A DNA stretch of 63,845 nt, the filler included, from Craspedostauros australis (Eukaryota), in assembly GCA_030167865.1 (NCBI GenBank). It is 7 parts of 7 records of this genome, joined end to end, with 100 filler letters (N's around TTAATTAATTAA, not from the genome) between each part and the next. Parts side by side here need not be neighbours in the genome. Positions count along the whole stretch, not along the records: positions 9,287 to 39,479 come from JALAGF010006561.1; 6 more parts are not named here. One strand, 5' to 3'. This document shows positions 11,991 to 44,500 of this stretch, piece after piece; within the stretch, counting starts at the first letter, position 1; every line of letters begins with the position of its first letter. A program made the translations under genes and the position numbers. Below the pieces are notes generated by a model. It searched no databases and was not told the origin of the DNA. It saw only the letters and a list, made by a program, of their open reading frames with translations.

Positions 11991-12326
11991 TTCCAACGTC
12001 TTGATTGCTTGATGGATGATCGGTGAAGGGTGATGAAGTGTGACGAACGGCTTGTAATTTATCATGGAGCAGAACACACAGGAAGGCCATCACGTTCGCC
12101 ACAAGTGTTGTGTGGCCGACAAATTTGAATCATGTTTGTAACGGCGCGAAACGATTCTTTGACATAACTGTGATAATTGGGAGACGATGCGTGATGTGTG
12201 TGGGTGTGTGTGTGTGATGTCATTGTTGTGAATATCCCTGACTGAACGGAGGCCGCGAACATGGGAGATTGTTGCTGCACCGTCTGTCATGGGATCGTAT
12301 ACCAACAATAACTACTCTCGATGTGT

Positions 12327-23534: not shown

Positions 23535-24701
23535 TTAGTTCTTTCCGAAGAAGAAGCTTCCGCCGCCGTTGTCCCAGCTGGAGTCGTTGTCCCAGACGCT
23601 CTCGTTCTCGTCGAGGTGGGAGTCGACGAGGTATGGCTCGACGCTGACGGAGAGCGGGAATTCGACGGTTCCAGTGTTGACGACGCGCACGACGTTTCCG
23701 ACGCCTGGAGTCTCAACGACGGCGAAGAATGGGCGCTCAAGGCCATCCTCGGTGTAGACCTCCATGACCTGCTTGTTGTTGTTTGGTCCCTGGAGGAGCT
23801 CGATGCGGGCGTTCAATGGACGTCCGTCCGTCTTGAGCATGACCTGGACGCTGGAGACGGCCGGGGAGAATGGGTAAGTCTGGATGGCTCCTCCCTGGAT
23901 GGTCTTTGGGATTCCGAGGGCGGCAAGCTTTCTTGGGATCTCGCCGACGGCGTCACCGGCATCTGGCTCGACGCAGGCGGCCATTGGGAACTCGAGGTGT
24001 CCCGTGTTGCGGATGGCAATGGCGTTGTTGGAGCGCGGAGTCTCGATGACGCAGCTGAATGGGCGCAGGTTACCGTCCTCGATGTAGACGGCCATCTTCT
24101 GCGGGGTGTTGTCTGGTCCCTGCCAGAGCTCGACGTTGGAGTTGAGTGGGCGTCCGTCGGTGCGGAGGAGGACCTGCACGCGGTTGGTGGAGGTTGGTGG
24201 CACGCAGGTGCGCAGGGATCCTCCCTGGACGGTGACGGGCTTGAGGGTGGCCCAGTTCTCCTTGACGAGCTGGATGTCGGATGGGAGGTTGTTGGCATCG
24301 ATGGTGAGGGCTGGGTTGTAGGTGACCTTGTCCTCGTCGACGTACTCTCCATCGAAGCGGGAGGAGAAGGAGAAGCTTGGGGAGTTAGAATCGGTGGTGG
24401 TGAATGGGCTGGTAGTTCCGATGGCCGCTGTGGCGGCGGCACGGACAGGTTTGGAGGTGGAGGTGCTGGTGCTGAAGGAGGCGGAGGATGGGGTGGTGGT
24501 GGAGCTGGAGCTGGTGGAGGATTCAACGCGGGTGCTGTTGGTGGTGGTCTCGTCTCCGTTGAGGTAGGAGTAGGAGAAGTCGCTGGACGAGTACAGGGCG
24601 GTGTTCTGGACCTTGGCTGGGGTGTTGACGAAGAAGGCTCCGGCGCCCATGAGTCCGGATTGGACGAGGGAGACGGCGAGGATGTTGCTAGTGAACTTCA
24701 T
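23535..24701 (-). CDS. Hypothetical protein with two tandem homologous domains and a probable bipartite plastid-targeting leader
   Basis: Signal peptide ending GAGA|FF, then an S/T-rich transit-like region. Internal repeat VQVxLxTDGRPLN..EL.QGP.N..Q...Y.EDG..RPF..V.ETP..NTG..EFP. Strong C-ending codon bias. Confidence 0.9.
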   Translation of the reverse strand: MKFTSNILAVSLVQSGLMGAGAFFVNTPAKVQNTALYSSSDFSYSYLNGDETTTNSTRVESSTSSSSTTTPSSASFSTSTSTSKPVRAAATAAIGTTSPFTTTDSNSPSFSFSSRFDGEYVDEDKVTYNPALTIDANNLPSDIQLVKENWATLKPVTVQGGSLRTCVPPTSTNRVQVLLRTDGRPLNSNVELWQGPDNTPQKMAVYIEDGNLRPFSCVIETPRSNNAIAIRNTGHLEFPMAACVEPDAGDAVGEIPRKLAALGIPKTIQGGAIQTYPFSPAVSSVQVMLKTDGRPLNARIELLQGPNNNKQVMEVYTEDGLERPFFAVVETPGVGNVVRVVNTGTVEFPLSVSVEPYLVDSHLDENESVWDNDSSWDNGGGSFFFGKN

Positions 24702-27700
24702 GGTTGTTGTTTGTTGTTGGTTTTGAAGGTTGCTGGCTGGTTGTTTGATGTGTCTTTGTTCTGGAATATGTAGTTATTGTCGGGAGTTGTCATGGAGGGG
24801 GTGGTCAAAGCGGTCATCGATGGTGGAGATCACGATGGCAATTCCAATTTCAGTGATGGTTGATTTGGACATGCGTTTGAGGAGGGTGTCATTGGAGCAG
24901 ATGGAGAGATGAATGAATGAATGAATGGGTAGATGGATGAGTGTGAGAGTGGTTCTGCAATGCATGTGATGGTATGCATCATGATTGTCATAGATGTGGA
25001 GGATGCAAGGGCAGTTGACAGCATCAATCCCATTCCCGACGGCGGAAGATGCCATGGTCGAGATGAATGCCTCCGCTATCACGAGGAATCTCATGACCAT
25101 GGCATCGCTGTTGCCGCTGGCGGCATGAGAGGTCATCCGCCTCTCCTCTCCCGCAGCAGTCTGGTGTCGTTCATGTTCGCGTCACTCGCGCCTCATGTCT
25201 CTCAATCCATCAGTCGATCAGCCGATCAGCCCATCAGTCAATCGATGGATGGCTCTGCTTCAGGTTTCACGTACCGATCAATCAGGATTTGTGTCTGTGA
25301 CAGATGTGAATCTGATGTCTGGTTTGACAGTGATGGCTTCCTGCAGTCGATCAACGAAAGGCGACGAACAACGGACTTCGAGGCAGGGAGGAAGGCATCG
25401 CCACCCGCATGACATGCGATGACATCGACTTCTCTCTCTCTCCGACACGCCTCCCACACCAGGACGATGAGATACGTCGCGACAGTACGATACACTACGA
25501 GCATCATGCCATGCCGCACCGTACAAATCAGCCATACGAATGCGACCGACGACAACACTCCATACGCACTTACGCACACACAGCCGCACGCTCGCACTGC
25601 CCATCAATCCAAACAATCGTTTGCGCTTTCGAAGTCCTCTCACACGCAGCGAGAAAGATAGACGACACCATGGCGAACGCACGCGGATTGGTTGGACAAG
25701 AGACGGCACGCCGCTGCTCGCCTCTCATTGGGCGGATTGTGGACGACGTTGAGGAACGTACTGGATGTGTGGAAAAGATTGACATTCATTCGTTCCACAC
25801 GTCATCGTCCAAACCACGTCGCTGTCATACGTCATGGTTTTTTCTGCGCTTTGTTCTTCGTGGTTAAGTGATTCCGGCGATGCGTCATACATGCGCACTT
25901 ATTGGGTAAACCGCTATTCTCTGTCACAGAATGACGTCAACGCCTGAAAAGGGAGAAGGGAATCTCAAATTCAGGGAATCTTGTTCCAGTCCATCCATTT
26001 TTGTCGCCTCGGACGCAATCATGACACGATCGTGTCACGTATTTCTCGCTTCCTCACATTTTCCAGGTTATTTCTGTCACGCACTTTCCGCGCCCGCTGA
26101 TGTCAACGATCGTCGATTTGCGCGACCGCTTCCTTCGTGTTTGTTGCCCTGATCGTATCTATCCGTTGTTCTTCTTCATTCCCTCATTGCGTGCGCCTGT
26201 GTCAGACAAAGCCGTCGGCGTCTCATGGCCGCGCCGCCCAATGCACTGAATTGTGTTGGATTGCGTTCTTCCGTCTGTTTCGGCACGCTGTTGTCCATCT
26301 CGGAACGGCGGCGAGCGCAACGATGGCAGATCGCCATGGTCACGACTTGCTCTCGTCCATGTATGATGGTTTCCTGTTGCTCGTTCTCTTCTTCTCTCTC
26401 CCAAAATCACCCCACCATGGCGACCATCGATGCATCATCGATGGATCACCTCATCCATCACTCCATGCATCACCTCATGCAATTAAGCATCCATCGGCAT
26501 GCCATCCCATCACATCAACTGCGTCTTCCCTGCCTTCGCGATCATCTCATTCCGAGGTGCTCTGGTGGCTCAGCTTGCGTCTTTTGTTTGTTTTGGCGAG
26601 GACCTCAATTGGGTTCCGAATGTGACTCTGCACCCTTGCTCATTGTGCAGATCGTCTTCAATGCAACAATCGTCGTCACTTGGTTTTGTTTGTCGAAGAG
26701 TCGTAATCGCTGAGACCGAGTGCGCCACCAACGACTAGAACTTCGACAGCAACGATAACAACAACTACAACTGCGACATACCTTGTCCAACGCAACAAGT
26801 GCTGCGCCAACAATACACCATGAACGATCGCGATACTTGCGTCTCTGCATCAGCAATGACGACAGAAATGACGATGCCAACACAGAAAGACGTCCGACGC
26901 ACATTTTCAGCCATGTTCTGTGAAAGCCGCGCATTTCGAACTGCGAACTCCGAAACATGAGGCGACATGTCGCACGACATTTCGACCGGCGTGGATTCCC
27001 GTCACCGCAAATTCCATCCAACAAATTCTGGAACAGACAGACGTCAGAATGCCGACCACACACTGCTAGATAAATCGCACGACGTCATTTCACCAAACCC
27101 TGTCACCCCAATCCGTGTTCCAATTGCAGGCTCGACTGGCGATAACGCTGATTATAGTCCGTTGGAACCACCAATGCGAACCTTTGCTCACGCATGTACA
27201 TCATGTCCAAACGCTTTTTCACAGCCTGCGTTCAAATACCGGTGAGATAACGTCTGCATTTTTGGCGAGTTCTTCATTGGCCATTTTATTCGGATGAGTC
27301 ATAGGATGTCGTGATGTCTACGAAGAAAGCTAGAGAGTTTAATCGAGTTGAACTTGCGATGTTGTGCAGGTGTTCCACTCACGAGGACAGTAACAAGCAC
27401 AACCTACGACCCCAAGAAGCATGTCAAGGCTACAGCGCAATGCACAAACGCGCACGCGCCCACATTCACTGAAAAACGTATACCATATTTGATGTTAATC
27501 TCTTACTTGACTATTGTACATCACGAAACCATCTGTATCACATGTTAGCTTTGGCGCGCATTTGATCATGCGTTTGCTTTGCTGCTTTTGTTGCACTGCT
27601 TTTGTTTTATTCCCCATTCCGATGCTTTGTTGGTGCTCGATGGCCAGATCATGTACCCGCGTCCCTGATGCCCATTGCGCGACTCTGATCTGGCACTGTT

Positions 27701-27780
27701 TCGGTGCAGCATCATCTCGTGAGCAGCCGCCGTTCCAACCAACAAGCATCGGCGTCCACGCAAATTCCATTTTGCTTGCC

Positions 27781-28917
27781 CTATCGTCGTCCCGACTTGC
27801 TCATTCTCGGAAGCTGATGCACGATTACAGTGATCAAAGTGGGGCGTTGCGTTGATGTGTCGGTGCAATGTTAGTGTGAAGGAGAGGGTTGAGAGAAGAG
27901 GAGGACGTGTCAGTGTGAGTCGAAGAAGTGCGATACCGCATTCATAACTTGATGTTGCAATGCCGTACGTTTGGAAGCGTAAACGCATTTTCCGCAATTG
28001 CGATGCAGCTCTCAGTTTGGAGCCAACAAGCAAATGAAGGGACGTACCTTTGCTGTCTTCTTGGTGGTCTTGTTCGAATCTGATGAAGATGATGATTTGG
28101 AGGTCTTGGATGACGTGGAAGTCTTGGACGTCTTCGAAGATTTCATGGCCACCTGTTCGACAGGAGCTGCTGATGGCATTGAAGTCGGAGATGCCGACGG
28201 GTTGGAGGACGTCGACGGCGCGAAGGAATCCGTGGGCGACGAGGATGGATTTTGCGATACCGACGGTGTGCTGGATGGCTTTGCCGATACTGTTGGTGCG
28301 AATGAAACGGATGGCACGGCGGATGGAGAGACAGAGCTCGATGGCGCGTTGGAAACAGTGGGGACGTTACTTGGACTGACACTCGGCGTGTAGCTTGGCG
28401 TGTAACTGGGGCTGCTGCTTGGCTGTGATGTCGTCGGTGAATTTGATGGAGCCTGGGACACTGTTGGCATATAGGAAGGCTGCTGGCTCGCAGATGGACT
28501 TGCGCTTGGTGTGCCGGTTGGGGCCGCTGTACCTGCAGATTTCGACGTCTTCGAACTTTTTGACGTTCCCGAGGACTTGGAAGATCTCTGCTTCATACCG
28601 CCGTTTCCGGCCTTCTTTGCTCCCTTCGCTGACTTGGAGGATGGCGTTGGTGGGGTTGCTGTCGGGGCTGATGTTTGGCCAGGTGTGAGTGCTGTAGGAG
28701 CTGCGGTTATCATGTCGCTGGAGGTGCCTGAGCCCGAGCTGGATTTTGAGCTCTTGAGGCCTCGGACCCGGATCATTTGGTGTGGCGTCTCCACTGTGGC
28801 TCTCACCATTGTCGGCAGTGTTGAGATAGTGATGATCGTTGTCATCCATATCGCCACGAGCAGAAGCGGCTTGGAGCGACCGCCATGAGAGGTGGGAGTT
28901 CGTCTGTTCAATTGCAT
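27781..28917 (-). CDS. Silaffin-like secreted protein 1 (exons 28917-28048 and 27813-27781)
   Basis: Hydrophobic N-terminal signal, RGL|KSSK site, KxxK clusters flanking PS/PT repeats. Donor AAG|GTACGT, branch CACTAAC and acceptor CATCAG give a final exon LPRMSKSGRR*. Confidence 0.82.
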
Positions 28918-30674
28918 GCTGGTATTCTGGTTGATCGTCTCGCGAATGCGCTGCTAATGTGAATGCAGATGTCGCTCACTCGTACGTGCTTGCTGTGATC
29001 CTCTTTCTATCGTTCTGTGCCGCTGTCTTGTCTTCGCCTTTTTGGTTGTTGCTGTGGTATGACGCTTTGTTGGTTCGATGCAATGGTACGCTTGTGTGTT
29101 TGTGCGATGATACGATGGTGCGGAGTGAGATGTAAGCTTGGTGTGATACGTATGATGGAGTGTTGTGAGGTCCGGTGCTGTGTTGTGCTATGGAATTTGA
29201 TGGAGCTTGATGAAATGCAATACAATGCGTACAATGAGATGTCTCGCTCTGTTGTGATGTGCTTGTCTCTTGAGGAAGCCGATCGGATGAGACGTGTTGC
29301 GAAGCCCCTGTATTGCCGATAATGATTGCAGTCTGGTAAAGTCCAATGGGTGCATGTAGCTGCGTGTATGCGTCCGAGTAGATATGTGATTGCATGTGTC
29401 TGCACTGCCCTCGCCTGCGATGCGCTATCAACAGGAGCTGGTCACATGACAGCAGAAGGGATGCAATTGATGCAACGGGAGAGAACCTCCACACGAGGAG
29501 CGCTTCAAGACTTGATTGCACATCAACACAAAATTCGTCCTCGCACTTTGGGCTACTCTACAAGAGTTGGTTGTGCATCTTCACGTCGAGGATTGACTTC
29601 CATTCGTCGACCAACCCAGCACATTCGATCCCCAAATCGAAGCAACAGCTTCGTCGGGTTGTGCGGTCCATTGCAGTTTGTGCTGGACCTGTGATCCATT
29701 CCCTTTGCGGCTGTGTGGGTATCTTGTGAGCATCGCCCATTTTGATGATGGGAACGCGACCCATAACACGATTCCATGCGTTGTGGAGAATTTTTCCTCG
29801 ACTTTTGGTTTCGTCATCGTTCGTTGTTCTTTCAGTTGTTCTCTTTTTCTGTCAGTCGAATCCATTCGTGCAGTGTTTTACACTAATCCACGATTGATGA
29901 ACAAGACGAAATCAACGAAACGGAATGCGTGGTTGTCGTTCCGTTCTGTTGCACTCCAGGCGCCTCCCCCGTCCCTTGCTTCCAACTCATCTCAAACCGC
30001 TCACTGGAGAATGTATGAGTGTTACAGAGCAGAGTGTGTAATAGGAGTGGTGAATGGACTTGAGTACCTGAGAGAGTACTCCAAATGAACCCCTTGGGGA
30101 ACTTAGTATAGTATCTACCTACCATACAGGTCCTTCTTTGGCGGTCCAGTCCCCAATCGAATGCATCGATGTCATTCTCCAATTACATGCCTGCCAGAGA
30201 TGAAGGAAATGGACGTGGATGCGCTGCAACAGGACCGCTGTGTCCAATGTCATCGCATCCATCTTCGCAATACGTGTCAAGTCCGCACCCCAAAGGAATT
30301 GCTCTACGACATTTGCTACTGTGTTTGCGTTTACGAATTTCTATCGTCACGTACGAGTAAATGCTATAATGTTATGCTATTGTACAAGATCAATTGGAAG
30401 GCGATCCATCGATGATCGCCTTTCGAGTATAGTGCCATGGTGCGTGAACACTCCCCTCGCTCGTTGTCCATCATGATTGGGACAGCAAAGAAAGCGATGA
30501 ACCATTGTTGTTATCGTTGTTTCCGCTGACGGAAATCCCGTCTCTGCGTGCACGGTATCGGACAAGCAGAGTGTAGTTTGTTCCCCCCATTCAAGACGAT
30601 CGCAACAGCATCTGTCCCTTGGCATGGGGAGGTATTGCTGAGCTGTCGTCGGTTGCTGCTCGAAGTCGAACAGT

Positions 30675-31701
30675 TTAATCTCGTCGGCTTGCTCCGATCT
30701 TGGAGAGCTGTAGGTGTAAGCGAACGCGCGTTGGCGAGAGTGGTAGAAGTAGGAAGATGAGAAAGAGAATTCTGTGAGGGATGGGCCAGGGAAATTGCGA
30801 CACATGCGGAGGCGCTTTCATTGCCAAGCTTCCGCCTCTTCGATCATTGCATGCTTCATTGCATGATGTTGATCGTACGTACCTTCGACGATCCCTTGGT
30901 GGACTTGGAGGATGAGCTGGGGGACGAGTCCGAGTTGGACTTGAAGATGTTGGATTTGGAGGACTTGCTGCTCGAAGACGATTTGGACGTCTTGGAGGTC
31001 TTGACGCTCGTGGGAGCATTGGACGGAGACATCGTTGGCGTGGATGTGGTTGGCGGGGCGGACGGTGCTCCTGTCGTGGGCGTGGCAGTTGGATTGCTGG
31101 TCGGTGCGCTGGTTGGCATCGAGGTGGTGGGAGAGTTCGATGGCACCTGCGTCGGTGCGCTGGTCGGCTGGTGTGTGGGGTTGCTGGTCGGTGCCGATGT
31201 CGGCAAGGCGGTTGGATTGCTGGTCGGCGCCGAAGTTGGGACGGCGGTCGGACTGCTGGATGGCAACTGTGTTGGAACGGCGGTCGGGGAGCTGGACGGC
31301 AGCTGCGTTGGGTTGCTGGTCGGCTGTCCCGTTGGCTGCGATGTGGTGGGCGAGTTGGATGGTGCCAGACTGATGGACGGTGCCATTGTCTTTGACGACT
31401 TGGCGCTCTTGCTGCCCTTGAATCCAGACGATGTCGTCTTTGTCGTCTTGGTGGTTGGTGACGACTTTGACGATTTCGATGTTGTCGGCGACGTCGGGGT
31501 TGTTGGCGATGACGGCGAAGAGTCGCTGCTGGTGGAGGAGCTCTTGAGCCTACGCGTCTGGACGCTATTGCCTGCGAGCGTGAACGAGGCGTCGGCGGCT
31601 GCCGCCGTTGCTGTGCAGATGGCCAGGATGAGAGCGACGAACAGGAGGAGGGGTGTGGAGCGCAGAGCGCAACGCTTGGATGGTGTGCTGTGGGTGGTCA
31701 T
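30675..31701 (-). CDS. Silaffin-like secreted protein 2 (exons 31701-30883 and 30707-30675)
   Basis: Signal peptide LLLFVALILAICTATAAAADA, RRL|KSS site, KSSK/KTSK clusters flanking PTSAPT repeats. Donor AAG|GTACGT and acceptor CTACAG give a final exon LSKIGASRRD*. Confidence 0.85.
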
Positions 31702-33837
31702 GGTAACTTGTGACTGTGGGTGTGGCTGTGACTGTGGATGCAGGTGATGGTGATGTGATGGTGATGAGATTGTTGGAGCTGATTTTGTGAGAGCGATGAA
31801 TGGGCTGTGTACGTGTGGTGGTGTGTGCGAGAGAGAGTCGATGCTTCTGAAATTGTGAGAAGGAGGATAGCATCGAGGACGGAAAGGACATCCGTGGCAC
31901 CAATGCTGCAACAGCAACGGCTATGTTCGAGGCGGAAAGGACCAAGCAGCTACCATAGCTACGGCAATGAAGCGACCGACACGAAAAAGGCGAGGAGCAG
32001 GAAAGTACCTGGGTCGAACACCGCAACGTCAATCCACATACATGACTCCACGTGCTGTGTTTGTCCGTCTCACAAGATCCATGGTAGGTGGAATGATGGA
32101 GACGGTGCCTTTCATAAGACCAACATGGTTGGTGGCACATGTATGGTGATTGCGGCTGCGGCACTCGCGCCTCGCTCCAGCATCGCCTTGTCTCTAAATC
32201 GCAGTCACATTTTCGGCAAGGGACGATGTTGTGTGGCGCTTGGAGGGCGGAAACGGTTGGGTATCTTGTGGGCGTTCGCCAATTTGGTGTTCCCACGCGT
32301 GACTCTTGACAAGACTTCGCGTCGGGTACGAATCAAATAGTACCAATATACGATACTATATTGATACCATAGTATATCAAAGAAACCAGCTTGTTGGAGT
32401 ACTTGTGCAGTTTGTGGGCCATTTAGTCGTGATTCCACAATCACGACCCAGCAACAGCGTGATAACGGTGACCTCATTGTCGCTCAGGTGCGAGATCGAA
32501 CACTGAGGAAAGGCAACACCAACCAAGAATCAGGAACGTCCACGTGCTATTTCGCTTTCTTCTTCACATCACGGAGTTCTTCATGGTTATCCCTAGCGTG
32601 AAGATGGTTGAAGTTGATTGGTGACATGGTCATTCGCAATGTCGCACAGAACGTGGGCAAAAAGCGAAGAACAGTTTCTCTCTCCTGAACGTTATCGTGC
32701 GTTACCTCGCGAACATGCGCCCAGGACGAACGACAACACGGCGCCGCCACGTGCGCGGGATAATAACGCTGAGGTGAAGTCTCCCATCTGTTGCGACGCA
32801 GTGAGATGTGGAAACCAATCTGGACTGATGAATTCCATGGAACCGTTCGATGGTTCCCGCGAATCCCTCCCGTCCGTGAACGAGTTGTTGGCCGCGCAGA
32901 TGTCAGCGAGTTGGCCATGGCATAATTAGTCTACGCTACGTCACAAGGATGCTCTGAATGATTGGACGGGTAGTTCTTCGCTGAGGCACAATAAACTGCG
33001 CAAACAACACCACACAAAACAAGACAGCACAGCGACGTGACGTGATTTGAGGTGATGTGAGGTGATACTGGGGGAACACAAGGCGCGTGTGTCGTAGCGA
33101 AGTCGTCAGAACAAAGTCGGGAACAACCTCCCCAGCGTACGAGCGCGAGTATGTCTCCAGAGCGGTTATTGTTTCTGTCTCTGCGGCTAACTGGCACGCG
33201 GTTGTTCCTTCGCCGCCGTGCCATTTCGCACTGTGCGGAAAAGGCCCGACACAAGGACGACATCTGGAAAAATCTGGGAGCCATTCGGTTGGCTCGTGGT
33301 TGGAATGTACAAGGAGCGTTATTGTTGACTAGCAACCAACCAGTCACATCGCGGCGAGGTGTGTTCTGTTTCAGTGTTGACCGCCTGTCCAGTCGCTCAG
33401 CTCGGTGATTGCGCTGCTACGCTCCTCTTCCTCTCACTTCGCGCCTCCTTATTCCCGCCTCCACATAAACTCGCAACCATCAAGGAACACTTCTCAAAAG
33501 CAGGCGCTGTTTCCACATCACATCTCAACATCACCGCAACACCACAAACACCGCAAACACCACCTCTGCGCAAGTATCTCTGTCTGAACACAATCCAATC
33601 CTTCAGAGACACACACACACACCCTTCCCTTCTCATCAAAGGAAGGCAAGCACCAATCTCGGACGCATTAACCATAAACGCAACATCGGACCGTCACAAC
33701 AAAGCAAAGTATCAAGCATCACGAGAAGCGTCCTACCTCCAACATCGCCGACTTCCGCACCAGTCCCTTTCATTGAAACAATCTATCGCAACAATCCATC
33801 GCAACAACCCATTGAAGCACTGCGCATCATCCAAGAG

Positions 33838-36018
33838 ATGGCTCCCAACGCAAGCAGCCATCATCACGAGGACAGCGACAGCATGAGCGACGACGACATG
33901 CACAACATGGAGGCCTCTTCCTTCCTGGACAACGCTGAAGGCAGCAGCAGCAGCAACAGCGGCAGGAAGAACCCAAAGAACAAGCACAAGAGCAAGCGAT
34001 CCTGGCTGCGAAAGAAGTACGAAGAACGCAAGATGTTCGGTTCGCAAACGCGGGGTGGATACAGCGGACTCGACACCCACGACAACGCGCACAGCGACAC
34101 GGACGACGAACTCGAGGAGCACGAGAGCCCAGCGCTGCTCATGGCCAAGTCCTCCGACTCTGTCTGCTCTTCCTCCACTTGCTCCTTCACCGAGACCTCT
34201 CGCACCAGCAGCCACGGTCACAGCGACAACGACAGCCACAGCTCCTCTTCACGAACAAGATGCTCGGCTGTGCGCAAATGCTGCAAGACCTTCTGCAAGG
34301 TGCTCAAGGCCCTCTTCCTCGTCGCTTTCGTCTTCTCCTTCTGGGTCGTCGTTTGCGTCGTGCGAAAGACGAACCTGCCCTTCTCCCATTCCAACTTCAT
34401 CCTCATGGGAAAGTTCGAGGTCTCCGATGTCGTGAGGCACTTCGCCGCCCCAACCACCAACAGCGACGGCACCAAGGGAGCCCAGATCATGTACTGGAAC
34501 CGCGTGCACACGCCGCAGGGCCTCATGGACTGCTCCTTCGACTTCTCCTCCATCCTCCACGAGGGTGGTCAGGGCATCCTCTACTCCGGCAACTGCACCA
34601 ACGCCCCCTACGTCCATTCCGGCAAGCACGGCCACAACCACCACCACGACCATCACAAGCACCACAAGCACAACCACGCGCCAGTCCGCACGGATAAGGT
34701 CGTCTTCAAGTACATCAAGGGATGGCGTCCGCTTCTCTGGGAAGGCGTTGCCACCAAGGTCATCGGCGACATGGAGGAGAGCGACTACAAGTTCTACGGC
34801 AGCGGCATCAACTTCATGGTGGCCTCCGAGCTGCAGCACTACAAATCGCTCTGGAAGGAGCTCGACGACGTCCACGATCTGCCGCACTTCCTCCTCCAGG
34901 AACTTCAGCAGGTCTCCAAGCAGGTCCGACACCTCAACGAGCACTTCTTCCATCTCGACATGTGGTGGTACAACGTGCTTTACCGACCAGCCAAGTACTC
35001 CAAGCAGGAACATCAGGAGCAGCAGAAGCAGCTTGACATCCAGTTACCATCTGAATCCTTGGAGGATTCCGGAGACGACGACGAGGACTCCAGCAGCGGC
35101 AGCAGCGGTGACGGTCCCTGGAAAATTGGAGCCCTGCAACACATATTCTCATCAACGACAACGTCTTCCTCCTCCAGTGACAGCGCGGATGGTCACCATG
35201 GACGCCACTTGGCGAGACACTATCTCCGTGCCCGTCATGTCATCGAGGCCGTCGCCCATGGCAAGGCGCCCGCTCATCACCAGAGGCGGCAGCAGCAACA
35301 GGTTCAGGAAGGCACATTGGATGTCGAGGCTGTCAGCGAAGGCGAAGCCGCATTTGACAACAGCGATGAAAGCGAACAGGCCAGTGTCAGCGTTGACAAG
35401 AGTGACAGCGACTCTGATAGCGACTTCGACAGCGATAGCGAAAGCGATTCTGATAACGACAGCGACTCTGATAACGACTCCGACAGCGACAGTGACTCGG
35501 AAGTGGCACCAGCAGCAGAAGTGGAGGCGCCAGAAAAGGAAGAAGAAAAGGAGGACTGGCAATTCCAGCTCATCGACTTCACCATGGCCATGCCACGCTC
35601 GATCCGATTCCAGGCCATCAAGCACCACATCGATGTTGCAAGACGCCGTGCACCCTACGCCGTTTGCTTGCAGAAGAAGCAACACCAAACCCACGAACAG
35701 CGACAGTACTGCTCCTCCGATGACATCTACCCATTCGCCGGCAAGATCTGCGACGGCATCATCGACATCTACCCGCTCGCCGTCAATGCCCTCCGCATCC
35801 TCAACCTCAACACGATCCCGGATGCCGTCGATCCACCGCAATCCGAATGGCACGAGGACCTCGATGTCACGATCGCCCTGCATCAAGGATATCTCGACAT
35901 AATAACGGAGCTGGAGAAGCCGGAATACAACGTCCCCGCGGAGCTCACCACGATGATCCGAAACATGATCGACCTGCAGCATATGGATACGGATCTGGTA
36001 TGCGCCGATCATTCATAG
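33838..36018 (+). CDS. Type II membrane protein with a divergent protein-kinase-like domain on the predicted lumenal side
   Basis: Basic, Cys-rich segment then TM ALFLVAFVFSFWVVVCVV. Kinase motifs appear in order: EGGQGILY, VVFK, HLDMWWYNVL, LIDFTM, DIYPL. Single ORF with strong codon bias. Confidence 0.85.
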   Translation: MAPNASSHHHEDSDSMSDDDMHNMEASSFLDNAEGSSSSNSGRKNPKNKHKSKRSWLRKKYEERKMFGSQTRGGYSGLDTHDNAHSDTDDELEEHESPALLMAKSSDSVCSSSTCSFTETSRTSSHGHSDNDSHSSSSRTRCSAVRKCCKTFCKVLKALFLVAFVFSFWVVVCVVRKTNLPFSHSNFILMGKFEVSDVVRHFAAPTTNSDGTKGAQIMYWNRVHTPQGLMDCSFDFSSILHEGGQGILYSGNCTNAPYVHSGKHGHNHHHDHHKHHKHNHAPVRTDKVVFKYIKGWRPLLWEGVATKVIGDMEESDYKFYGSGINFMVASELQHYKSLWKELDDVHDLPHFLLQELQQVSKQVRHLNEHFFHLDMWWYNVLYRPAKYSKQEHQEQQKQLDIQLPSESLEDSGDDDEDSSSGSSGDGPWKIGALQHIFSSTTTSSSSSDSADGHHGRHLARHYLRARHVIEAVAHGKAPAHHQRRQQQQVQEGTLDVEAVSEGEAAFDNSDESEQASVSVDKSDSDSDSDFDSDSESDSDNDSDSDNDSDSDSDSEVAPAAEVEAPEKEEEKEDWQFQLIDFTMAMPRSIRFQAIKHHIDVARRRAPYAVCLQKKQHQTHEQRQYCSSDDIYPFAGKICDGIIDIYPLAVNALRILNLNTIPDAVDPPQSEWHEDLDVTIALHQGYLDIITELEKPEYNVPAELTTMIRNMIDLQHMDTDLVCADHS

Positions 36019-36744
36019 GTAATCCAATGGCATACATGCCCGATCGGCGGAATTAACTGCACTGTACACTTTAACAATACACTCTACAAATATAAGACTA
36101 TTATACTTCAACTCAACTATGTCAATGTCGTACGATTCGAGTAGAGCAAGGATACAATGATGTGGATGCACAGACAGATGCATGCATCGACATCGACAAA
36201 CATGAGGCGATAAGGAGAGGAAATACGTCGCGAATACTCCATGACAACCGTGCCGATGCAACAGAAGGAACCACAGGCGACGAGTATTTGCATCATGATG
36301 TGGTTAGTGGCTCCATGTCTCCCTCCTGGTTTCAACCAACGACAGACTCCTTCTGACGTTTCTCTCCCACGTTGGAGTCCACGTACATTCCATGATCTTC
36401 CTTGGAACAGATTCTTGGTCGTTCTTGTGATGTCTATTCCATCGTTTTCGTCTCCACAACAGACAGCATCCTCTGCGTGCCTACCCATCGCCGGTGCAGG
36501 TACAAGTGATGTTGGCAAGAATGTTCGTGGAGGCGGTGTCCGCTGGGGCAGCACGAGGCGATAGAGGAGCATGCGCAGTTCTAGCCTCCCTCTCTCTCTC
36601 TCTCTGGGGTCCCCAGTCCGCTTAATACGTAGTGTCTATTCTATTAATATTATATTGACAGCTCAGCGCTCTTTCCAACATCGCACATCTATGTAATTGT
36701 ATCAACAACGAGCCTGGCTTTCATTGAATCATACAATCATACCT

Positions 36745-38502
36745 CTAAAACACGCCGGTCAACGGACACCCAAAGATGATACCTTCCATGCGATGCCACG
36801 ATCGATGCCGTCCCATGGCAATCATCCAACCGTTCTGTGCAATCACCATGCGATCTTCTTCATGCTGCAGATAGTACCGAATTTTGCGACGCAGATCGGT
36901 GATGTTATGGAAGAATACGATGGACTTGCCGTCCTCCACCCCGACTGGCGCCGCCAGCATGGCGTCGTGTATCACCAACGGGCCATGCGCCATGGCCTCG
37001 AACAGTCGGTAATGATCTTCCCATTCATCGCGCTGCGTCACGACGACGATCTTTGCGGAGAGCAGCGCCGTGACGTACCGTTCGTCGACGCCATTGCGCC
37101 CCTTCGATCCCAAGTTTCCCTGGATTTTGGTGGATGCGACGATCGGTCGTTGTGGTGTGAGAGACGGTCCGCGGACGATGGGAGCCGCACTTTGCGTCTC
37201 GTTGATTGGATAGATCATCTTGCCATTCAGCTTGTTCAAGGTCTTGGAGACCATCGATCTGAAGTTCCCCGCGTCGGCAGTATCCTCTGCATTCCACAGA
37301 TGTATGACATCGACAGGCCGATGCGTGTGCGGTGGCGGGTGCTTTGCGAATCCTGTCAGCACCGACGCCTTGCTGAGTTGAGGTGACATGGGTTGATCGG
37401 TGTGGTTGAATGTGGGCAGAACCAGGCGGAGGGCATTGACGATGTCACCTCTTACGGCATACGGAGCCGGGATGGGTGCGCCGCCAGTGTTGTAGGTGTA
37501 TGTATGAATCTTGTGGTCCAATTTGCCAGGGTACACTGCATTCAAGTTGGATTGCCATCGGCGGAGTCTGACGCGAGATCGTACTGCGTAGCGCACATGT
37601 GGGTAGAGGCCCGTTTTGTGGACGTCGGGCGTTGCGTTCGCACTGGCAACAACAACAGGAGCAATCGTTGTCGACATTGTCGCTGACGTTGCAGCTGTTA
37701 TTGGTACATCTCCGACATCCTCACCCTCTGCAACAGCTCCTGCTGGTTCCGTACCGTTGATCACATGGCCACCTGCATTGAGGGATGTCTGCATATCACC
37801 TTTGGGACGTTTCAGACCGTATTCTTTCGCCCATCCGCGGCTATAGAAGTCGCTGTAATCCACCAGAAGCACCTTCCAATGTGGATTGGGCGCCTGGATC
37901 AACCACTTCATCATTTCCATCTTCTGCGGCGGTGGCTCCAAACACCGCGCGATATCGATGATCCATAACTGCACATCCTTGTAGAGGTCATCCTGCGGAC
38001 AACCTTGGTCGCCTTCCATGTAACAGATCGTGCGCAACGCGAGCAGAGACGATCCAATAACGCCATCCAAAAGGATGTGCTTGCCTTCGTGCAGCAGGGT
38101 GGGATTGCGGCTCGTGATGACTCCGACTTGGATGGGATCTTCGACAGTCGCATCGATGGAGTCGTAGACCGGATCATTGTCCGCCGCGTTGCAACCGAAT
38201 TGGCTTGCGACATGCGTCCATGCGAGCGAATGGGATTCTTGCGCATCGCTGCTGTTGCAATTGGACGCGCTCGTGCCTGGTTGATCCGACATGCCCATCA
38301 TCTGGGTGTTCATAACGATGAAGTCTCCGAAACTCCGCATGTTGAGCAATATCGAAATGCCTGCACTCGCGACGACGAACAGAAAGGCACGGGAGTTGGT
38401 CCAACGGCGGCTCCGCCGATCGCCGCCGGGCCTTGTCGTTGCCATGATGTTGGGATCGATGTGAGTGAGTGGGTGGTGTTGCTGTTGATTGTATGGTGGC
38501 AA
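36745..38502 (-). CDS. Type II membrane glycosyltransferase (GT-B, Glyco_trans_1_2/CgeB-like C-terminal domain)
   Basis: N-terminal TM AFLFVVASAGISILLN. C-terminal RLFEAMAHGPLVIHD..EDGKSIVFF..DLRRKIRYYLQHEEDRMVIAQNG..RH signature. Confidence 0.85.
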   Translation of the reverse strand: MPPYNQQQHHPLTHIDPNIMATTRPGGDRRSRRWTNSRAFLFVVASAGISILLNMRSFGDFIVMNTQMMGMSDQPGTSASNCNSSDAQESHSLAWTHVASQFGCNAADNDPVYDSIDATVEDPIQVGVITSRNPTLLHEGKHILLDGVIGSSLLALRTICYMEGDQGCPQDDLYKDVQLWIIDIARCLEPPPQKMEMMKWLIQAPNPHWKVLLVDYSDFYSRGWAKEYGLKRPKGDMQTSLNAGGHVINGTEPAGAVAEGEDVGDVPITAATSATMSTTIAPVVVASANATPDVHKTGLYPHVRYAVRSRVRLRRWQSNLNAVYPGKLDHKIHTYTYNTGGAPIPAPYAVRGDIVNALRLVLPTFNHTDQPMSPQLSKASVLTGFAKHPPPHTHRPVDVIHLWNAEDTADAGNFRSMVSKTLNKLNGKMIYPINETQSAAPIVRGPSLTPQRPIVASTKIQGNLGSKGRNGVDERYVTALLSAKIVVVTQRDEWEDHYRLFEAMAHGPLVIHDAMLAAPVGVEDGKSIVFFHNITDLRRKIRYYLQHEEDRMVIAQNGWMIAMGRHRSWHRMEGIIFGCPLTGVF

Positions 38503-41500
38503 TCCTTGTATTCGTGCTTGTGGCTGGAGTATGGAGTACGATGCACAGATCTATAACACGATCACTTGTGTGATGCACGGGGATGAGATTGGGCCATAGG
38601 CAACGACTCGATTCCGCGAAGCCACCACTCAACCAGCACCCGCCAAACCAACCAACCAATTCAATTGTAGGCTCGTGCGGGTGTGGTATGAGCAAGGTAA
38701 GTGGATCGTCGGGAAGCATGTTGTGCCCCGCTCCAAGCAGAGCACCCCATCAGCAACTTTGTTCTGTTGGTGTGGGGGCAAATGTTCCGCTGGTTTGTGC
38801 AGAATGTCTCAAAGCGAAGCGTTGCGGCGGAAGTACGATCCAAGACAACCAACGCGAATCTTGGACTACATCGATTACATCAACTTAGTTGTCGCCGCGA
38901 TCCCCATCTGCAAAGACAGATAGCGAGGAAAGAGCGAGAGACTTCGATAGTCCATTATCACGATCTAACTGTGATCAGCATGACTTTGTGCTCTCCATCA
39001 ATCGTTCTACACCTGTGATGTCATAGCGTACTCTATCACCGATACGTCCCAGCACATCGGAATGCATAACAGGTTTGCCACTACCGCACAGTTGCTCTCT
39101 TGTTAATACGAGCCCCTCGAGCGAGTCGACCAACTGTTTGAAATGAAGAGTCTAGTCGTTTTTCTGGGATTTTTAAACTAATAACAAATACATAATCCTC
39201 GTAGTATATTTACATATGGTGGACCCTTTCAGATTCTACTTGGTTTCATTTTAAGTTTTATGGAGTGATCTATGTGTGCATTGCAGTCGCGTTGATCCAA
39301 CAGCAGCAAATTCGTTAGTTTCTGCCGAAGGTTCGANAATGTTCTCATGCATTTATCGTGAGGTGATAAGTCACGGACCTGCTTCCGAAGGTGCCGGTCG
39401 TTTGGTACGCGTTAATTACACGTTAGCATGTGGCACCTGATTCCACATTCTGCTCGTCACAAAACACATGACACAAAACNNNNNNNNNNNNNNNNNNNNN
39501 NNNNNNNNNNNNNNNNNNNNNNNTTAATTAATTAANNNNNNNNNNNNNNNNNNNNNNNNNNNNNNNNNNNNNNNNNNNNGGACGTTGGACGTTGGACGAT
39601 TGGCGTTGGATTGGCTGTCGAGGATGTCTGTGGTCGGAGCTGCCTATGGAAGAGATATCGATGGTGGTGTCTGCAACAGCTTGTATTAGTATGAGTATGA
39701 GTACCATACGCTGTGTGATGAATATGAGTGGCAATTCGATGTTTGTTGTTGATGCGCTGGAGTATGGGGTTGAGTGGTGTGTGTGTTGTTGTCTTGTTCG
39801 CATGGTCTCCTCCTTCTCTCTTTGTGTTTGCCTGTGTTTGTCTCCTTCTCTTGATCAAACGCGTCTGNTTCGCGCGGATTGGATCTTTCTGTTCCCATCC
39901 ATCACGAAAATGCGTGCGACCAACAACAAGAAAGAAGCACCACAACAGAGTTCTCGTTTGGCCACAATCAACACAACACCAATCCGAAGCAAACAACGTG
40001 AAAGTCTTCGGAAACACAGACAGCTGTCATCGTCGCCACCGCCGCCGCCATCACCATGTGCACCATGGCCCACGCTTGCTTGCGTCATCGTGGCATCTGC
40101 AAGACCGCTGACCCTTGTCCGCCTGCTATCGCAAGCACCAACTTGAGGTGTGAGCCAATGCCTCGAACAACCATGAAGCCACCAATGTGACTGCCTTGGT
40201 TGGTTTCAACCNNNNNNNNNNNNNNNNNNNNNNNNNNNNNNNNNNNNNNNNNNNNNNNNNNGAGGTGTGAGCCAATGCCTCGAACAACCATGAAGCCACC
40301 AATGTGACTGCCTTGGTTGGTTTCAACCCATCTCATTTGGATTTGACTGGTTGCCATCCCACCGCATTGCGACCATAACCATCCGCGCAGGCAACAAGAG
40401 TCCCCAACATCCAACCAACACCACATTGCGTATTGGGATGAGTTGGCATGTTCGGCAATCAACAGGCGGAGCGATACCGTGCCGCCTCCACTGTTCCTGC
40501 TGCATGGACCACCAACATACAATACCATGCGCGTTCTATCCACAGGCAGAAGCACCGCCGTCTTGGCTCGTGACTTCCAGAGCATCGATGCCCAACCGAG
40601 GCGATCGACAGGAACATCCGTCTCATCAACGAAGTTGGGAGCACCACGAAGGAGGACATGTGGAGATACGGTGCGCGCATGGGCCATGGATCGCTGACCG
40701 TGTGCTTCTTGCGCCATATGGAACTCTGTGTCAACCATGATCCGCAATACTGCACTCGCACTCTGCATGGGGTTGCTTGTTGGTTCGTTGGTTCGTTGGT
40801 TTCTTCTTTTGCTCGTCAAGCTCTCTGGATGCTTGGACTGCGCTAGCTCGTCGGTTCTTGTCTTTCCGTCACGCTGGCACTGTTCGCTTCGAAGATTGGA
40901 ATGAATGGTGACCCTGGCAATTGTTGCTGTAACCGCGAGTGATTGCTCCTCCTCGGACTTGATAAGGGTCTCGACTGCAGTGTTGGCATAATGGTGGGAG
41001 TGCAACTCATGGAGAGATGAGGACAATAGCGTGATACGGGACGGTCGATGGAACCGTGCAGCAACCATGCTCCTCGCGGCTTCTCACCATCTCCCTCTGC
41101 CTTGTTCGCCATGTGTTCTTCGTAGATCGCCTCTTCCAGCAACTTGGATCGACTGGCATCGGCACTGTTGCTTTGCATCTGCTTGGTAGTGTAACTTGGA
41201 GTGGAGATTGCTCTGTGTGCGAATCCGGTGGCATCGTGACGACCGCACGGCTTGTGATACTGCTGCTGCCATGCGTCCTTTGCCTGTGCAACGAACCAAC
41301 AACGATGCTGATGGCGGAGTGTGGATGGAACCACAGATGTCCAATCCGTTCATGAATGACATCGGCAACATCCCTGTGTGGGTATGTACCGCAGAGAGCG
41401 GACCAGACTAGTCGTTGACAAGGCGGAGGCAGCATGGGAGCAGTATCCAGCCCTTCAATCTCTTGAAACATCCGGTGCCTTCATCACAGCGTTCTATTGC

Positions 41501-44500
41501 ATCAGCAGATATAGTACATGCGGTACTGTTCCAAACATACGTAGAGCATTACAGTCTATTCGTAGGTGTATTACATTACAGCGACATGAGTCTACCACAC
41601 CTCTATGAGTATGATACAAATACGGAGCGGCCCATCCATCTCATTCCATCCCATCATGTCGTGATGCATCACGGGGTGGGAGTTTTGGTACCATTCATCA
41701 AGGGATGGCGGTACTGAGACGCGCTCTTGCTCCTGACCGCTTTCTTTGGTGTGAGTTGCAGTGGTTTTGTGCCGGACAGCTTCTCATGGTAGACAACATC
41801 GCGAGTCGATGATCTGCTTCGTCCACGGCGATTNNNNNNNNNNNNNNNNNNNNNNNNNNNNNNNNNNNNNNNNNNNNNNNNNNNNNNNNNNNNNNNNNNN
41901 NNNNNNNNNNNNNNNNNNNNNNNNNNNNNNNNNNNNNNNNNNNNNNNNNNNNNNNNGATCTGCTTCGTGGTCGCGCCGATGGTGATCGTTCATCAGAGGA
42001 CTTCCTTCGCTGATCTTCGCCACATGGTGTCGATTGGCTACGGCCACGTTGATTTGGTGTTCGCGAACTTCCCCGGGCATGCGTTCGTGAAGGTGAGCCC
42101 TTGCGTTGGTGCAAACCAGTACCGGTGGAGTGCGCATTTGAGTTGGATTGGCGTGAACGTGAGGCTGCGTTCACATCGTCCGAACTGCCAGATGTTCGTT
42201 GGCGTCGTGATGATGGCGATGAGTCCATCGATACTTGCGCAGTCTTCTGCGGCCGCGATCGGACGGGCTTCGACGACTCCGCGCCGATGGCGAGCAGCGG
42301 CTTCTTCCAGAGGAGCAAGTGTGAATTGCTCCGTCACGACGATGGCACAATGATGTCGAATGCTCCACACTCTTTGATCTTGACGATGTTGAATGCAGCT
42401 TGCCACTGGCGTGCTGTGCGCTTCTCCGCCAATGCCGTGGCGACGGTGATCTCGATGGTAATATCAATGGTGATGACACGTCTCTTGTTTTGCTGGAGTG
42501 GTGATGTCGGGCCCATTGCCAAGCACCTTGGAGATCCTTTCCTTGATCTCATCGCGCAGAGCACCCGTGCTTCGTCCACGTGAACGTCGTTGCTTCGAGT
42601 CTTCACTTGGGCGAAACGAACTGCATGCAGATCTGTTGTGAGAAGGAGCCCCTCGTCCCTTCTTGCTCGATTGCAATTCGATTCCCAAACTCAAGGCTCC
42701 AGGACTGGATGGGGCTTGGGATTGTGGCCGAGACACCTCCGTGGTTGCGTTCGAACTGTTGAAGATTGAGTTTGGATTTGGACTGCGATGATGATGACGG
42801 TAGCGACAATGATGACGCCTTTGCAGATGCTTTGGTCAAGGCAAGATCGGCCAATTGCGATGGTCGACATTCGAGAGATGGTCGTTGCTTCGATTTGGCA
42901 GGATTGGTCGACGACACTTCACGTAATGATGATCGTTTGGCCTTGAGGATGCTGTCCAACGTCGACCTGCACTTGTTCAACGACCAAGACTGTTGTCTCT
43001 CTTCATGTGTGCGGCTGAAGGGAAAGGGGGCTGGTGTAGATGCCGCGCTCCGACCTCCAGGTGTGACAGGGGCCACAGAGCTTCTCCCACCGTTCATTGC
43101 AGCAGCACTTGTCGCAGCGCCGACGTTGTCATCATCGTCGTCATGGAGACTTGGCAGAATGGACAGTTACTCCAAGCTCTTGCTGCGTGACGTCTCCGTT
43201 GTCGCAACTCGAGGTAGAGCCGGGGTGCTGGCTGCGCTCATCGCGCCTGGTATGTCTGATGTGTATGTTGTGCCTGGCATGTGGTGTCCATCCTTCGAGC
43301 ATTCCAAACTCTTGCTCCTCGATTTGGCGCTGCTGGTCGTTCCGTTGGAATTCGTTTGTGTCCTTGGCCTGCGTCTCCGACTCTGGGCAAGCTTCGTCTT
43401 GTCTTGACTGCTCCGTTCTCGGGTCGCGCCGAGTGCTGGGGTTGTGGCGAAGCTGAGTCCACCTGGGGTGTTTGGCACCGGCATTGGTTTGTTGTTGTTG
43501 AACTTGCTGGGATCAAGGGAGCTGAATGACATCTCATGAGCTTGCATGTTGAGCATGTCCAGACTCTTCGCACATGATCGTTTCACAGCCAAAGCTTTCG
43601 CATCTTTGGCTGTACTTCTATTGGCCCTGCTTGGTGTATCTGTGCTGACACTCGCACGACGACCTGATTTGCAGCTGCTTTGGCCTCTTTGGCTATGATT
43701 GTGGGCTTGCTCGCCTTTGATTTCGTGTCAGCCTGTTGAGGTTGCTTGGTCTCTATGTTCTTCTCTGCTATCAGTCTGACACCGTCCTCTTCCAGCAACT
43801 TCGATCGTCATGACCTCATGACCGAGCGAAGGTTCGAACAGAGTATCAGGCTGGACGCTTTGTTGTGGCAACTCCCAGAGTAGATCGTATTCATGGAAGG
43901 TTCCATACTCATAGTCGTATGACGGGTGGGTCAAGATGCGGAGCAACTGGCGAGCCTTCCCACAGTTCCTCTTGGATGTCGATTCTTTGTCATCTTGTCT
44001 GATTGTTTGTGTTTGCGTTGGTGTTGTTGGTGGTGGTACCAATTGTGAAGGGATGCGGCGCCGTTGGAGGGGTTGCCATCGCCATCACCATCACCATCGC
44101 CATCACCATCGTCGAACAGAGTTGCATTGTGTGAAGATAACAGAGAGGTGATGTTCGTCGCGAGTGTTTGTGTGTGTCATTGGTTGATTGAACGACGGAT
44201 GGCAGACAGACGAGTGCCCCACCAAACGCGCCAACAATTCTTGATACCACCCGAAACAACGAATCTTCGATTTTGCACATGATTCATCAAACAACATCAA
44301 CATCAACACAAAAGAGAGAGAGAGAGATGAAATGGCATGACTATGCTTGCATTGATAGAGGTATCAACCAACACTGAGACATTGGCTGTCAAGCAATGAA
44401 GAAATGAAGCAGTAGAGTAGCCAAACAAGCGGCAGCTGCGCAAAATATGGCACGCCAATAGAATCAACGAAGGCGACCATGGCATGAGACGATGATGATG

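Follow-up and report, generated by a model that had tools for sequence, protein, structure and literature searches.

Four adjacent secretory-pathway genes in the diatom Craspedostauros australis: two predicted silaffin-like proteins, a predicted lumenal kinase and a predicted glycosyltransferase

Introduction

For silaffins to be active in silica formation, their phosphorylation and glycosylation are essential. A block of four genes in Craspedostauros australis (positions 27,781 to 38,502 of the DNA analysed here, GenBank assembly GCA_030167865.1) raises the question whether such proteins can be encoded together with the enzymes that modify them. It contains two tandem genes for silaffin-like proteins (g1 and g2), a gene for a predicted secretory kinase (g3) and a gene for a predicted glycosyltransferase (g4). 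The window, by which we mean the whole stretch of DNA that was analysed, comprises 63,845 nucleotides including filler and joins seven parts of seven records of this genome end to end.

The best explanation of the locus as a whole is, with reasonable though not high confidence, a piece of nuclear DNA of a raphid pennate diatom with four adjacent single-exon genes whose products are predicted to enter the secretory pathway. In the following, we describe what the four products are predicted to be, and then ask what their neighbourhood means.

Four adjacent genes with predicted secretory products

The window has a GC content of about 50 % and represents diatom nuclear DNA. A diatom origin agrees with the homologs of g3 (Stauroneis, Phaeodactylum) and of g4 (Craspedostauros, Nitzschia, Cylindrotheca) and with the pyrenoid shell ORF upstream of the block. 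Using the standard code, we called 49 ATG-started open reading frames (ORFs) of at least 150 amino acids, including the four that make up the block (Table 1). As an N scan of the window found no N between positions 20420 and 39336, the four-gene stretch is gap-free. The tandem pair g1 and g2 is followed by g3 in divergent orientation, 2.1 kb away from g2, and g3 and g4 converge with their stop codons separated by 727 bp. Between the four genes no further convincing ORF was detected, although the spacers of 1.9-2.1 kb may still hide small or spliced genes, and no additional paralogs of the block genes were found elsewhere in the window. The four proteins themselves are absent from a collection of 15 billion proteins.

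A first-pass annotation of this DNA had claimed four consecutive genes in gap-free sequence, all of them predicted to enter the secretory pathway, and both claims are borne out: the four long ORFs lie where it placed them, and simple tests (Kyte-Doolittle hydrophobicity together with counts of flanking Lys and Arg residues) predict signal peptides for g1 and g2 and hydrophobic anchors for g3 and g4. Its labels for the products also stand as predictions. Two silaffin-like substrates are indicated by the signal peptide, an RxL site, grouped KxxK motifs and PT/S repeats, without a strict pentalysine cluster; a secretory kinase by the kinase fold, invariant catalytic residues and a probably lumenal domain; and a glycosyltransferase by a PF13524 match above the cut-off, a whole GT-B fold and a type II anchor.

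g1 and g2 are predicted silaffin-like proteins

Both proteins have a strongly biased composition. Ser, Thr, Pro and Lys account for 26, 13, 13 and 7 % of the residues in g1 and for 26, 19, 14 and 7 % in g2, and 24-30 basic residues stand against 3-5 acidic ones. At the N-terminus, a basic stretch is followed by a hydrophobic core starting at residue 18 (Kyte-Doolittle values of 1.8 and 2.6), and a signal peptide directing entry into the endoplasmic reticulum (ER) is thus predicted at this end of both. Each protein contains a single RxL motif, RGL at residues 52-54 of g1 and RRL at residues 50-52 of g2, which is directly followed by a Lys (K55 and K53, respectively), so that the sequence after the site reads K-S-S. 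The RxL motif and the Lys are conserved in the alignment of the two proteins, which thereby share the RxL site of the silaffin-like class. Behind this site, g1 and g2 share the order of elements: two Lys/Ser blocks, the second of them C-terminal, enclose a central PS/PT block.

KxxK motifs were counted ten times in g1 and nine times in g2, and these two are the only ones among the 49 ORFs with more than six; next comes g3, with six motifs in 726 amino acids. If gaps of up to 10 residues are allowed, the motifs fall into three groups in g1 and two in g2, each with 2-5 motifs. The strict form K[SG][SG]K is present three times in g1 and four times in g2, and most of the other KxxK motifs carry T or A. 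One criterion for silaffin-like proteins asks for repeats of KXXK (X = S or G) spaced 1-6 residues apart (PMC5501833), a spacing that is nearly reached by residues 95-104 of g2 only. Segments of 100 amino acids with at least 10 % Lys and at least 18 % Ser, which is reportedly the cut-off of Scheffel and colleagues from 2011, make up 47 of 202 in g1 and 5 of 182 in g2. According to a study of silica proteomes, KS.KS-, SKS.K- and SKA.K-type motifs show an enrichment of more than 20-fold there, and two K..K motifs within 10 residues lead to partial silica targeting (bioRxiv 10.1101/2021.09.18.460806). This weaker targeting feature is found in both g1 and g2, whose groups each hold two or more such motifs.

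Comparison of the two proteins with BLASTP resulted in an E-value of 2e-9, and a global alignment is collinear with 43 % identity. Conserved elements are RS-PLLL, R-LKSS, KTSKTSK and the C-terminal K..KVR, and the low-complexity middle has diverged. g2 also has a weak match to the Pfam PT repeat (E 1.4e-4), which lies under the cut-off.

Several results count against a role of these proteins as silaffins. The regular expression for a pentalysine cluster, K..K..K.{1,2}K..K, matched neither g1 nor g2. No homologs of known function were found for either protein; the homology search returned eight weak matches, the best with an E-value of 1e-8 over 35 % of the query, and they align mainly the PS-rich low-complexity part. 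Comparing g1 against a protein atlas gave no usable match. In addition, the connection of all four genes to silica is a prediction from their sequences. Two of the weak matches, P0068 and, from Cylindrotheca closterium, P0063, combine a K/S/G block with a following PS-rich block in the same way as g1 and g2, and carry no functional name.

These points bear on a live alternative, namely that g1 and g2 are mucin-like proteins of the extracellular matrix or the adhesive mucilage of this benthic raphid diatom and not silaffins embedded in biosilica. Their KxxK blocks would then bind polyanionic polysaccharide by charge and play no role in silica formation. Such a function would fit the mature proteins, about half of which consists of Ser and Thr together with 13-14 % Pro, and it would fit the missing strict pentalysine cluster as well as the two look-alikes without a functional name. 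On the other hand, screens for silaffin-like proteins select on a signal peptide together with repeated KXXK motifs, pentalysine clusters and RXL sites (PMC5501833), and the combination present in g1 and g2, a signal peptide, a close RxL site, grouped KS.K-type motifs and PT repeats, is of the kind that such a screen picks out. Moreover, PT repeats are not a mark of mucins alone, as the same source describes them for TpSil1 as well as for 13 further proteins of the silaffin-like or KXXK-motif kind (PMC5501833). We therefore regard the mucin-like function as a possibility to be taken seriously, yet one that is rather improbable, and 'silaffin-like' would remain a fair description of g1 and g2.

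In line with the silaffin-like description, g1 and g2 resemble the silaffins and silaffin-like proteins (SFLPs) of Thalassiosira pseudonana and Cylindrotheca fusiformis in their predicted signal peptide, the nearby RxL site and the Ser-rich grouped KxxK motifs. Their PT/PS repeats are reminiscent of TpSil1, and compositional bias and disorder are as in silaffins and SFLPs. They differ from these proteins by the missing strict pentalysine cluster and by having no sequence homology to them, the latter being usual for the class. Silaffins in the biochemical sense are phosphorylated proteins embedded in biosilica that bear polyamine-modified lysines and precipitate silica, and the features compared here are those of the bioinformatic class. 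As silaffin-like proteins, g1 and g2 would enter the ER via a cleavable signal peptide, and cleavage at the RxL site would remove a propeptide of about 15 residues. The central PT/S block would be O-glycosylated and the Ser and Lys residues of the KxxK blocks modified, and the products would end up in the cell wall, either in the biosilica or in organic layers or mucilage.

g3 represents a small family of predicted lumenal kinases

We consider the g3 family to be the most interesting single item of the locus and a candidate for a pennate-diatom silaffin kinase. The first part of the predicted kinase domain of g3 contains a Gly-rich loop (GGQGILYSG), VVFK291, E302 and the catalytic loop H372-L-D374-x4-N379, with a His-rich loop insert at about residues 260-280. 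The equivalent of the DFG motif, WQFQLID580FT, is separated from the catalytic loop by an insert of 187 amino acids, and the predicted local distance difference test (pLDDT) stays below 50 over residues 253-428 of the model. This insert is poorly conserved and holds a (SD)n run of about 33 amino acids, which is absent from the Stauroneis ortholog. All five catalytic residues of kinases, the beta3 Lys, the alphaC Glu, the Asp of HxD, the Asn and the Asp of DFG, are present in g3.

An exhaustive phmmer search with residues 176-390 of g3 identified six proteins at E <=0.001 among 1.84 billion representatives. Organisms are named for two of them, Phaeodactylum tricornutum and, via a cluster member, Stauroneis constricta. 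The closest relative is the one that clusters with the S. constricta transcript; it is 56 % identical to g3 overall, and since the alignment with this ortholog runs unbroken from end to end, g3 has no intron. The Phaeodactylum protein (XP_002177612) is a distant homolog, and a literature search on its accession numbers found no paper. Across the family, the alignment is characterised by the motifs GG-G--Y-G, V--K, E--A, HLD----N and FQLID[FYL][ST]. K291, E302, D374, N379, D580 and several Cys residues are invariant in the six sequences compared (columns K142, E153, D225 and N230 of the family alignment A3 correspond to the first four of these), and the same holds for FQLID. So far, this very small and fast-evolving family occurs in diatom-like sequences only.

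A family profile searched against the PDB found 51 matches at E <=10, all of which are kinases (best E 0.0046), and in the alignments HLD..N of g3 falls on the catalytic loop of the solved kinases and LIDF on their DFG motif (LIDFG). Weak matches to Pfam kinase families were obtained for three of the six homologs, the best one for P0039 against Pkinase (PF00069) with an E-value of 9.5e-6 and 25.6 bits, which does not reach the cut-off of 31.7. The protein-language-model neighbours of residues 176-390 that have a Pfam family are all kinase-like, the first with a score of 0.94. Structural comparison of the g3 model with 48,161 chains using VIA-align points in the same direction: the best 50 matches listed are protein kinases or complexes with one, with Z-scores of 10.3-12.1 and 217-260 aligned residues that include both lobes. 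In the model, the protein is a bilobal kinase. Fold and catalytic residues together support, as a prediction, that g3 is a kinase, namely a catalytically competent, divergent eukaryotic protein kinase (ePK).

The orientation in the membrane was deduced from the residues around the predicted anchor. Four Lys and Arg residues on the N-terminal side of residues 157-175 face two on the C-terminal side, and the same excess on the N-terminal flank is seen in all six evaluable members of the family (g3 and five homologs); P0038 was excluded from the count, as the script chose a different segment there. In g3, P0001 and P0037, the three closest members, six Cys residues follow the anchor. Both features lead to a type II orientation, in which the kinase domain of g3 probably faces the lumen.

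Not all of the evidence supports this assignment. g3 has no Pfam match at E <=1, a phmmer search against the PDB returned nothing significant but low-complexity noise, and Foldseek found nothing at E <=0.001, with JAK2 as the best match (3.8e-3). The AlphaFold model was calculated from an alignment of seven sequences and has a mean pLDDT of only 59.8 with long disordered inserts. The predicted topology, finally, depends on a single principle, the positive-inside rule.

The kinase fold also leaves room for a different substrate or for no catalysis at all. POMK and Fam20B are lumenal glycan kinases of animals, and g3 could be a similar enzyme and not a protein Ser/Thr kinase, or else a pseudokinase or scaffold. 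Its catalytic loop H-L-D-M-W-W-Y-N lacks the Lys which is typical of the HRDxKxxN motif in Ser/Thr kinases, no APE motif follows the DFG equivalent, and a glycosyltransferase gene is directly adjacent. However, all five catalytic positions are invariant (the Lys that binds ATP, the Glu of alphaC, the catalytic Asp, the Asn that binds Mg and the Asp of DFG), which argues against a pseudokinase. The top structural matches are protein kinases of the CLK, DYRK and CDK type, and the best 50 VIA-align matches include no Fam20 or glycan kinase, a result with which such a family would still be compatible; a Pfam match to Fam20 was obtained neither for g3 nor for its six homologs. Taken together, we think that a glycan kinase or a pseudokinase is unlikely, and that g3 most likely phosphorylates lumenal client proteins. 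It would do so as a type II anchored kinase with its catalytic domain in the lumen of the ER or Golgi.

The only silaffin kinase named in the literature cited here is tpSTK1 from the centric diatom T. pseudonana, which a review describes as having an N-terminal signal peptide, as associated with ER and Golgi and as preferring basic substrates (PMC4557024). g3 is similar to it as a diatom kinase whose predicted place is the lumen of the early secretory pathway, and its gene lies beside those of basic silaffin-like candidate substrates. It differs, as far as a comparison by description goes, in its N-terminal tail of 156 amino acids and the internal signal anchor. Outside the diatoms, FAM20C is reported to phosphorylate biomineralisation proteins (PMC3416761), and RON13 of Toxoplasma is presented as a type II lumenal ePK in which HFD replaces the HRD of the catalytic motif (PMC8213820), comparable to HLD in g3. 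Like these two, and like POMK, g3 would belong to the type II anchored or secreted kinases with lumenal clients. What sets it apart is that its structural matches are ordinary ePKs and that it carries the acidic insert in front of the DFG equivalent.

g3 thus stands for a very small, pennate-type family of predicted lumenal kinases that is missed by Pfam and has one relative in the model diatom P. tricornutum. As the gene adjoins those of two plausible substrates, a cheap and direct experiment is possible.

g4 is a predicted type II glycosyltransferase

g4 matches the Pfam family PF13524 (Glyco_trans_1_2) with an E-value of 9.3e-14 and 52 bits against a cut-off of 25, and this domain is present in all 35 homologs found. 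The best of these comes from Craspedostauros (41 % identity), others from Nitzschia and Cylindrotheca. The AF2 model has a pLDDT of 77.2 and a predicted template modelling score of 0.73. Its best VIA-align match reached a Z-score of 17.3 at a root-mean-square deviation of 4.7 over 286 aligned residues, and Foldseek returned 21 matches at E <=0.001 (best 1.0e-4). A sequence profile of g4 searched against the PDB gave only spurious matches to PI3K (E 0.05). The identity to solved enzymes amounts to 8-13 %, and donor, acceptor and mechanism can therefore not be deduced from them.

In front of the anchor of g4, five Lys and Arg residues were counted, and none behind it. The Arg-rich tail together with the anchor fits a Golgi type II enzyme, and g4 is predicted to be a Golgi-type GT-B glycosyltransferase with type II topology, belonging to the CgeB/YkvP-like group of PF13524. 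Its two-domain (two-Rossmann) fold is whole as in GT4-like and CgeB/YkvP enzymes, with matches to PimA, BshA, TreT and SdgB. In contrast to those GT-Bs, g4 is eukaryotic, carries a type II anchor and has a disordered insertion about 60 residues long.

The match to SdgB is weak (Foldseek E 4.0e-4). This enzyme glycosylates SD repeats in staphylococci, and g3 contains a (SD)n run in an insert that is predicted to be lumenal; as the run is missing in the Stauroneis ortholog, the link between g4, SdgB and SD repeats is probably a coincidence.

Physical linkage and possible functional clustering

Physical clustering of genes that respond to silicon is not without precedent. In Phaeodactylum tricornutum, Sapriel et al. 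(2009) reported physical clusters of silicon-responsive genes, including genes for KRS-rich and PT-repeat matrix proteins (PMC2758714), and Table S1 of that work has five rows with kinases among the silicon-responsive genes. Our locus is similar to those clusters as a short run of genes in a pennate diatom with a tandem duplicate of a putative matrix protein. It differs in that they were defined by co-expression (PMC2758714) and this block by adjacency alone. In the parts of the report drawn on here, the clusters with a shared function consist of paralogs or similar genes, and no module of an enzyme with its substrate is among them. The remark of the first-pass annotation that it knew of no described example needs to be divided: clusters of silicon-responsive genes are on record, and the pairing of enzyme and substrate has no counterpart among those reported in these parts of PMC2758714.

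The first-pass annotation had interpreted the block as a tailoring cluster. In this model, g3 acts as the kinase and g4 as the glycosyltransferase of g1 and g2, and the linkage is selected and co-regulated during the formation of valves or girdle bands. Several observations are compatible with it. The predicted routes of all four products converge in the lumen of ER and Golgi, g1 and g2 are rich in Ser and Thr in a basic context, and basic substrates are what tpSTK1 favours (PMC4557024). Kinases and a glycosyltransferase are reported from silica proteomes (bioRxiv 10.1101/2021.09.18.460806), and about one quarter of the silicon-responsive genes of Phaeodactylum are stated to be physically clustered in groups of 2-4 (PMC2758714).

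The functional part of the interpretation, in contrast to the four component labels, has adjacency as its sole evidence. The four upstream regions of 800 bp have no k-mer of at least 8 bases in common, and they share only six 7-mers, compared with 11 in a set of four upstream regions of unrelated control genes. The closest relative of g3 is from Stauroneis (56 %) and that of g4 from Craspedostauros (41 %), with no comparably close relative of g4 listed; because these sources are transcriptomes, the differing taxa are weak evidence. The neighbours of the block, a plastid gene for the pyrenoid shell and ankyrin arrays, are unrelated to it. Furthermore, secretory proteins make up a sizeable share of a proteome, and runs of four secretory genes are therefore expected by chance several times per genome.

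Sequence data from other sources added little on linkage or expression. A metagenome scan with the alignment of six g3 family sequences gave 87 pattern matches and no relative, and a scan with the Phaeodactylum-type homolog P0040 found a single locus (L001), which at 1784 bp is too short for context. Only one public run (X1) contains this DNA. Its contigs are of uncertain kind, by our guess RNA, and they agree without mismatch with positions 27581-27903, 33534-36092 (small gaps included), 36259-36446 and 36610-37485, which takes in g3, the 3' part of g4 and a stretch shortly past g1; the 5' half of g4 and both silaffin-like coding regions are uncovered. These contigs cannot show absence, strand, expression level or co-expression.

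We conclude that an action of g3 and g4 on g1 and g2 is possible, with adjacency as its sole support, and that a selected and co-regulated tailoring cluster is improbable. It is more likely that the block consists of a tandem duplicate beside two unrelated secretory enzymes. Equally improbable in our view is the most far-reaching version, in which two silaffin-like proteins have been kept linked to their own lumenal kinase and Golgi glycosyltransferase, with g3 founding a type II anchored silaffin kinase family that is restricted to diatoms and distinct from tpSTK1. If it were true, the locus would be unusual among eukaryotes in grouping substrates with the tailoring enzymes for a biomineral matrix; without a functional linkage, what remains is a commonplace tandem duplication beside two genes for secretory enzymes.

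It is very improbable that g1 and g2 are chance ORFs in low-complexity DNA open on both strands. In favour of this view, an ORF of 298 amino acids runs antisense to g2, further frames are open, sense and antisense frames are not clearly told apart by codon usage, and neither coding region is covered by the X1 contigs. Against it, each ORF begins with a signal peptide of the canonical basic-hydrophobic type, RS-PLLL, R-LKSS and the C-terminal K..KVR are conserved between the two in collinear order, an X1 contig matches exactly just past the stop codon of g1 (27581-27903), and proteins of the same layout occur in other diatom-like data. Strand and frame of the two genes are accordingly read from length, signal peptides and paralogy, the unclear codon usage being a point against them.

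Neighbouring genes and further features of the window

Table 1. Positions of the block genes, their predicted domains and other features, counted along the whole window
Feature	Positions	Strand	Description
g1	28012-28917	-	intron-less ORF, 301 amino acids; secreted, basic, disordered protein (predicted)
g2	30856-31701	-	intron-less ORF, 281 amino acids; tandem paralog of g1
g3	33838-36018	+	intron-less ORF, 726 amino acids; predicted type II membrane protein with divergent protein kinase domain
g3 signal-anchor/transmembrane span	34306-34362	+	residues 157-175, best 19-mer hydrophobicity 2.56
g3 kinase N-lobe and catalytic loop	34543-34989	+	residues 236-384
g3 disordered acidic/Ser-rich insert	34990-35550	+	residues 385-571; model pLDDT <50
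g3 kinase C-lobe	35551-36015	+	residues 572-726; pLDDT 78-93, conserved Cys
g4	36745-38445	-	intron-less ORF, 566 amino acids; predicted type II anchored GT-B glycosyltransferase
g4 N-terminal signal anchor	38329-38385	-	residues 21-39, Arg-rich tail before it
g4 GT-B catalytic fold	36769-38139	-	residues 103-559; disordered insert 216-275
Pyrenoid shell protein ORF	23535-24701	-	388 amino acids, PF25192, E 3.1e-88
Ankyrin-repeat gene	476-1417	+	7-13 repeats in each of the three genes
Ankyrin-repeat gene	20524-22215	-	as above
Ankyrin-repeat gene	46471-48090	-	as above
Recurrent ORF	4440-5111	+	start peptide nearly the same in all four
Recurrent ORF	13745-14404	-	as above
Recurrent ORF	41007-41471	-	as above
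Recurrent ORF	51389-51865	-	as above
Second recurrent ORF, first copy	41698-42228	-	pair about 10 kb apart
Second recurrent ORF, second copy	52088-52630	-	as above
Low-complexity stretch	10204-12012	both	ORFs of 526 and 552 amino acids, AT skew -0.48
Ser-rich ORF	14626-16188	-	520 amino acids, no Pfam match

Directly upstream of the block lies the pyrenoid shell ORF, which encodes a full Diatom pyrenoid shell protein domain together with an N-terminal targeting peptide. In the low-complexity stretch at 10204-12012, the ORF on the minus strand would code for a Ser/Gly/Thr/Arg-rich repeat protein and has no Pfam match. An ORF of 468 amino acids runs opposite the Ser-rich ORF at 14626-16188, and the coding strand is therefore uncertain there. 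Two sets of ORFs recur in the window and point to a unit several kb long that is repeated, as a segmental duplication or a mobile element; of these ORFs, 41007-41471 and 52088-52630 were tested and gave no Pfam match. The three ankyrin genes, which are located on both sides of the block, have near-identical repeat units and similar N- and C-termini, and their position among many short runs of N suggests a recently amplified, poorly assembled array.

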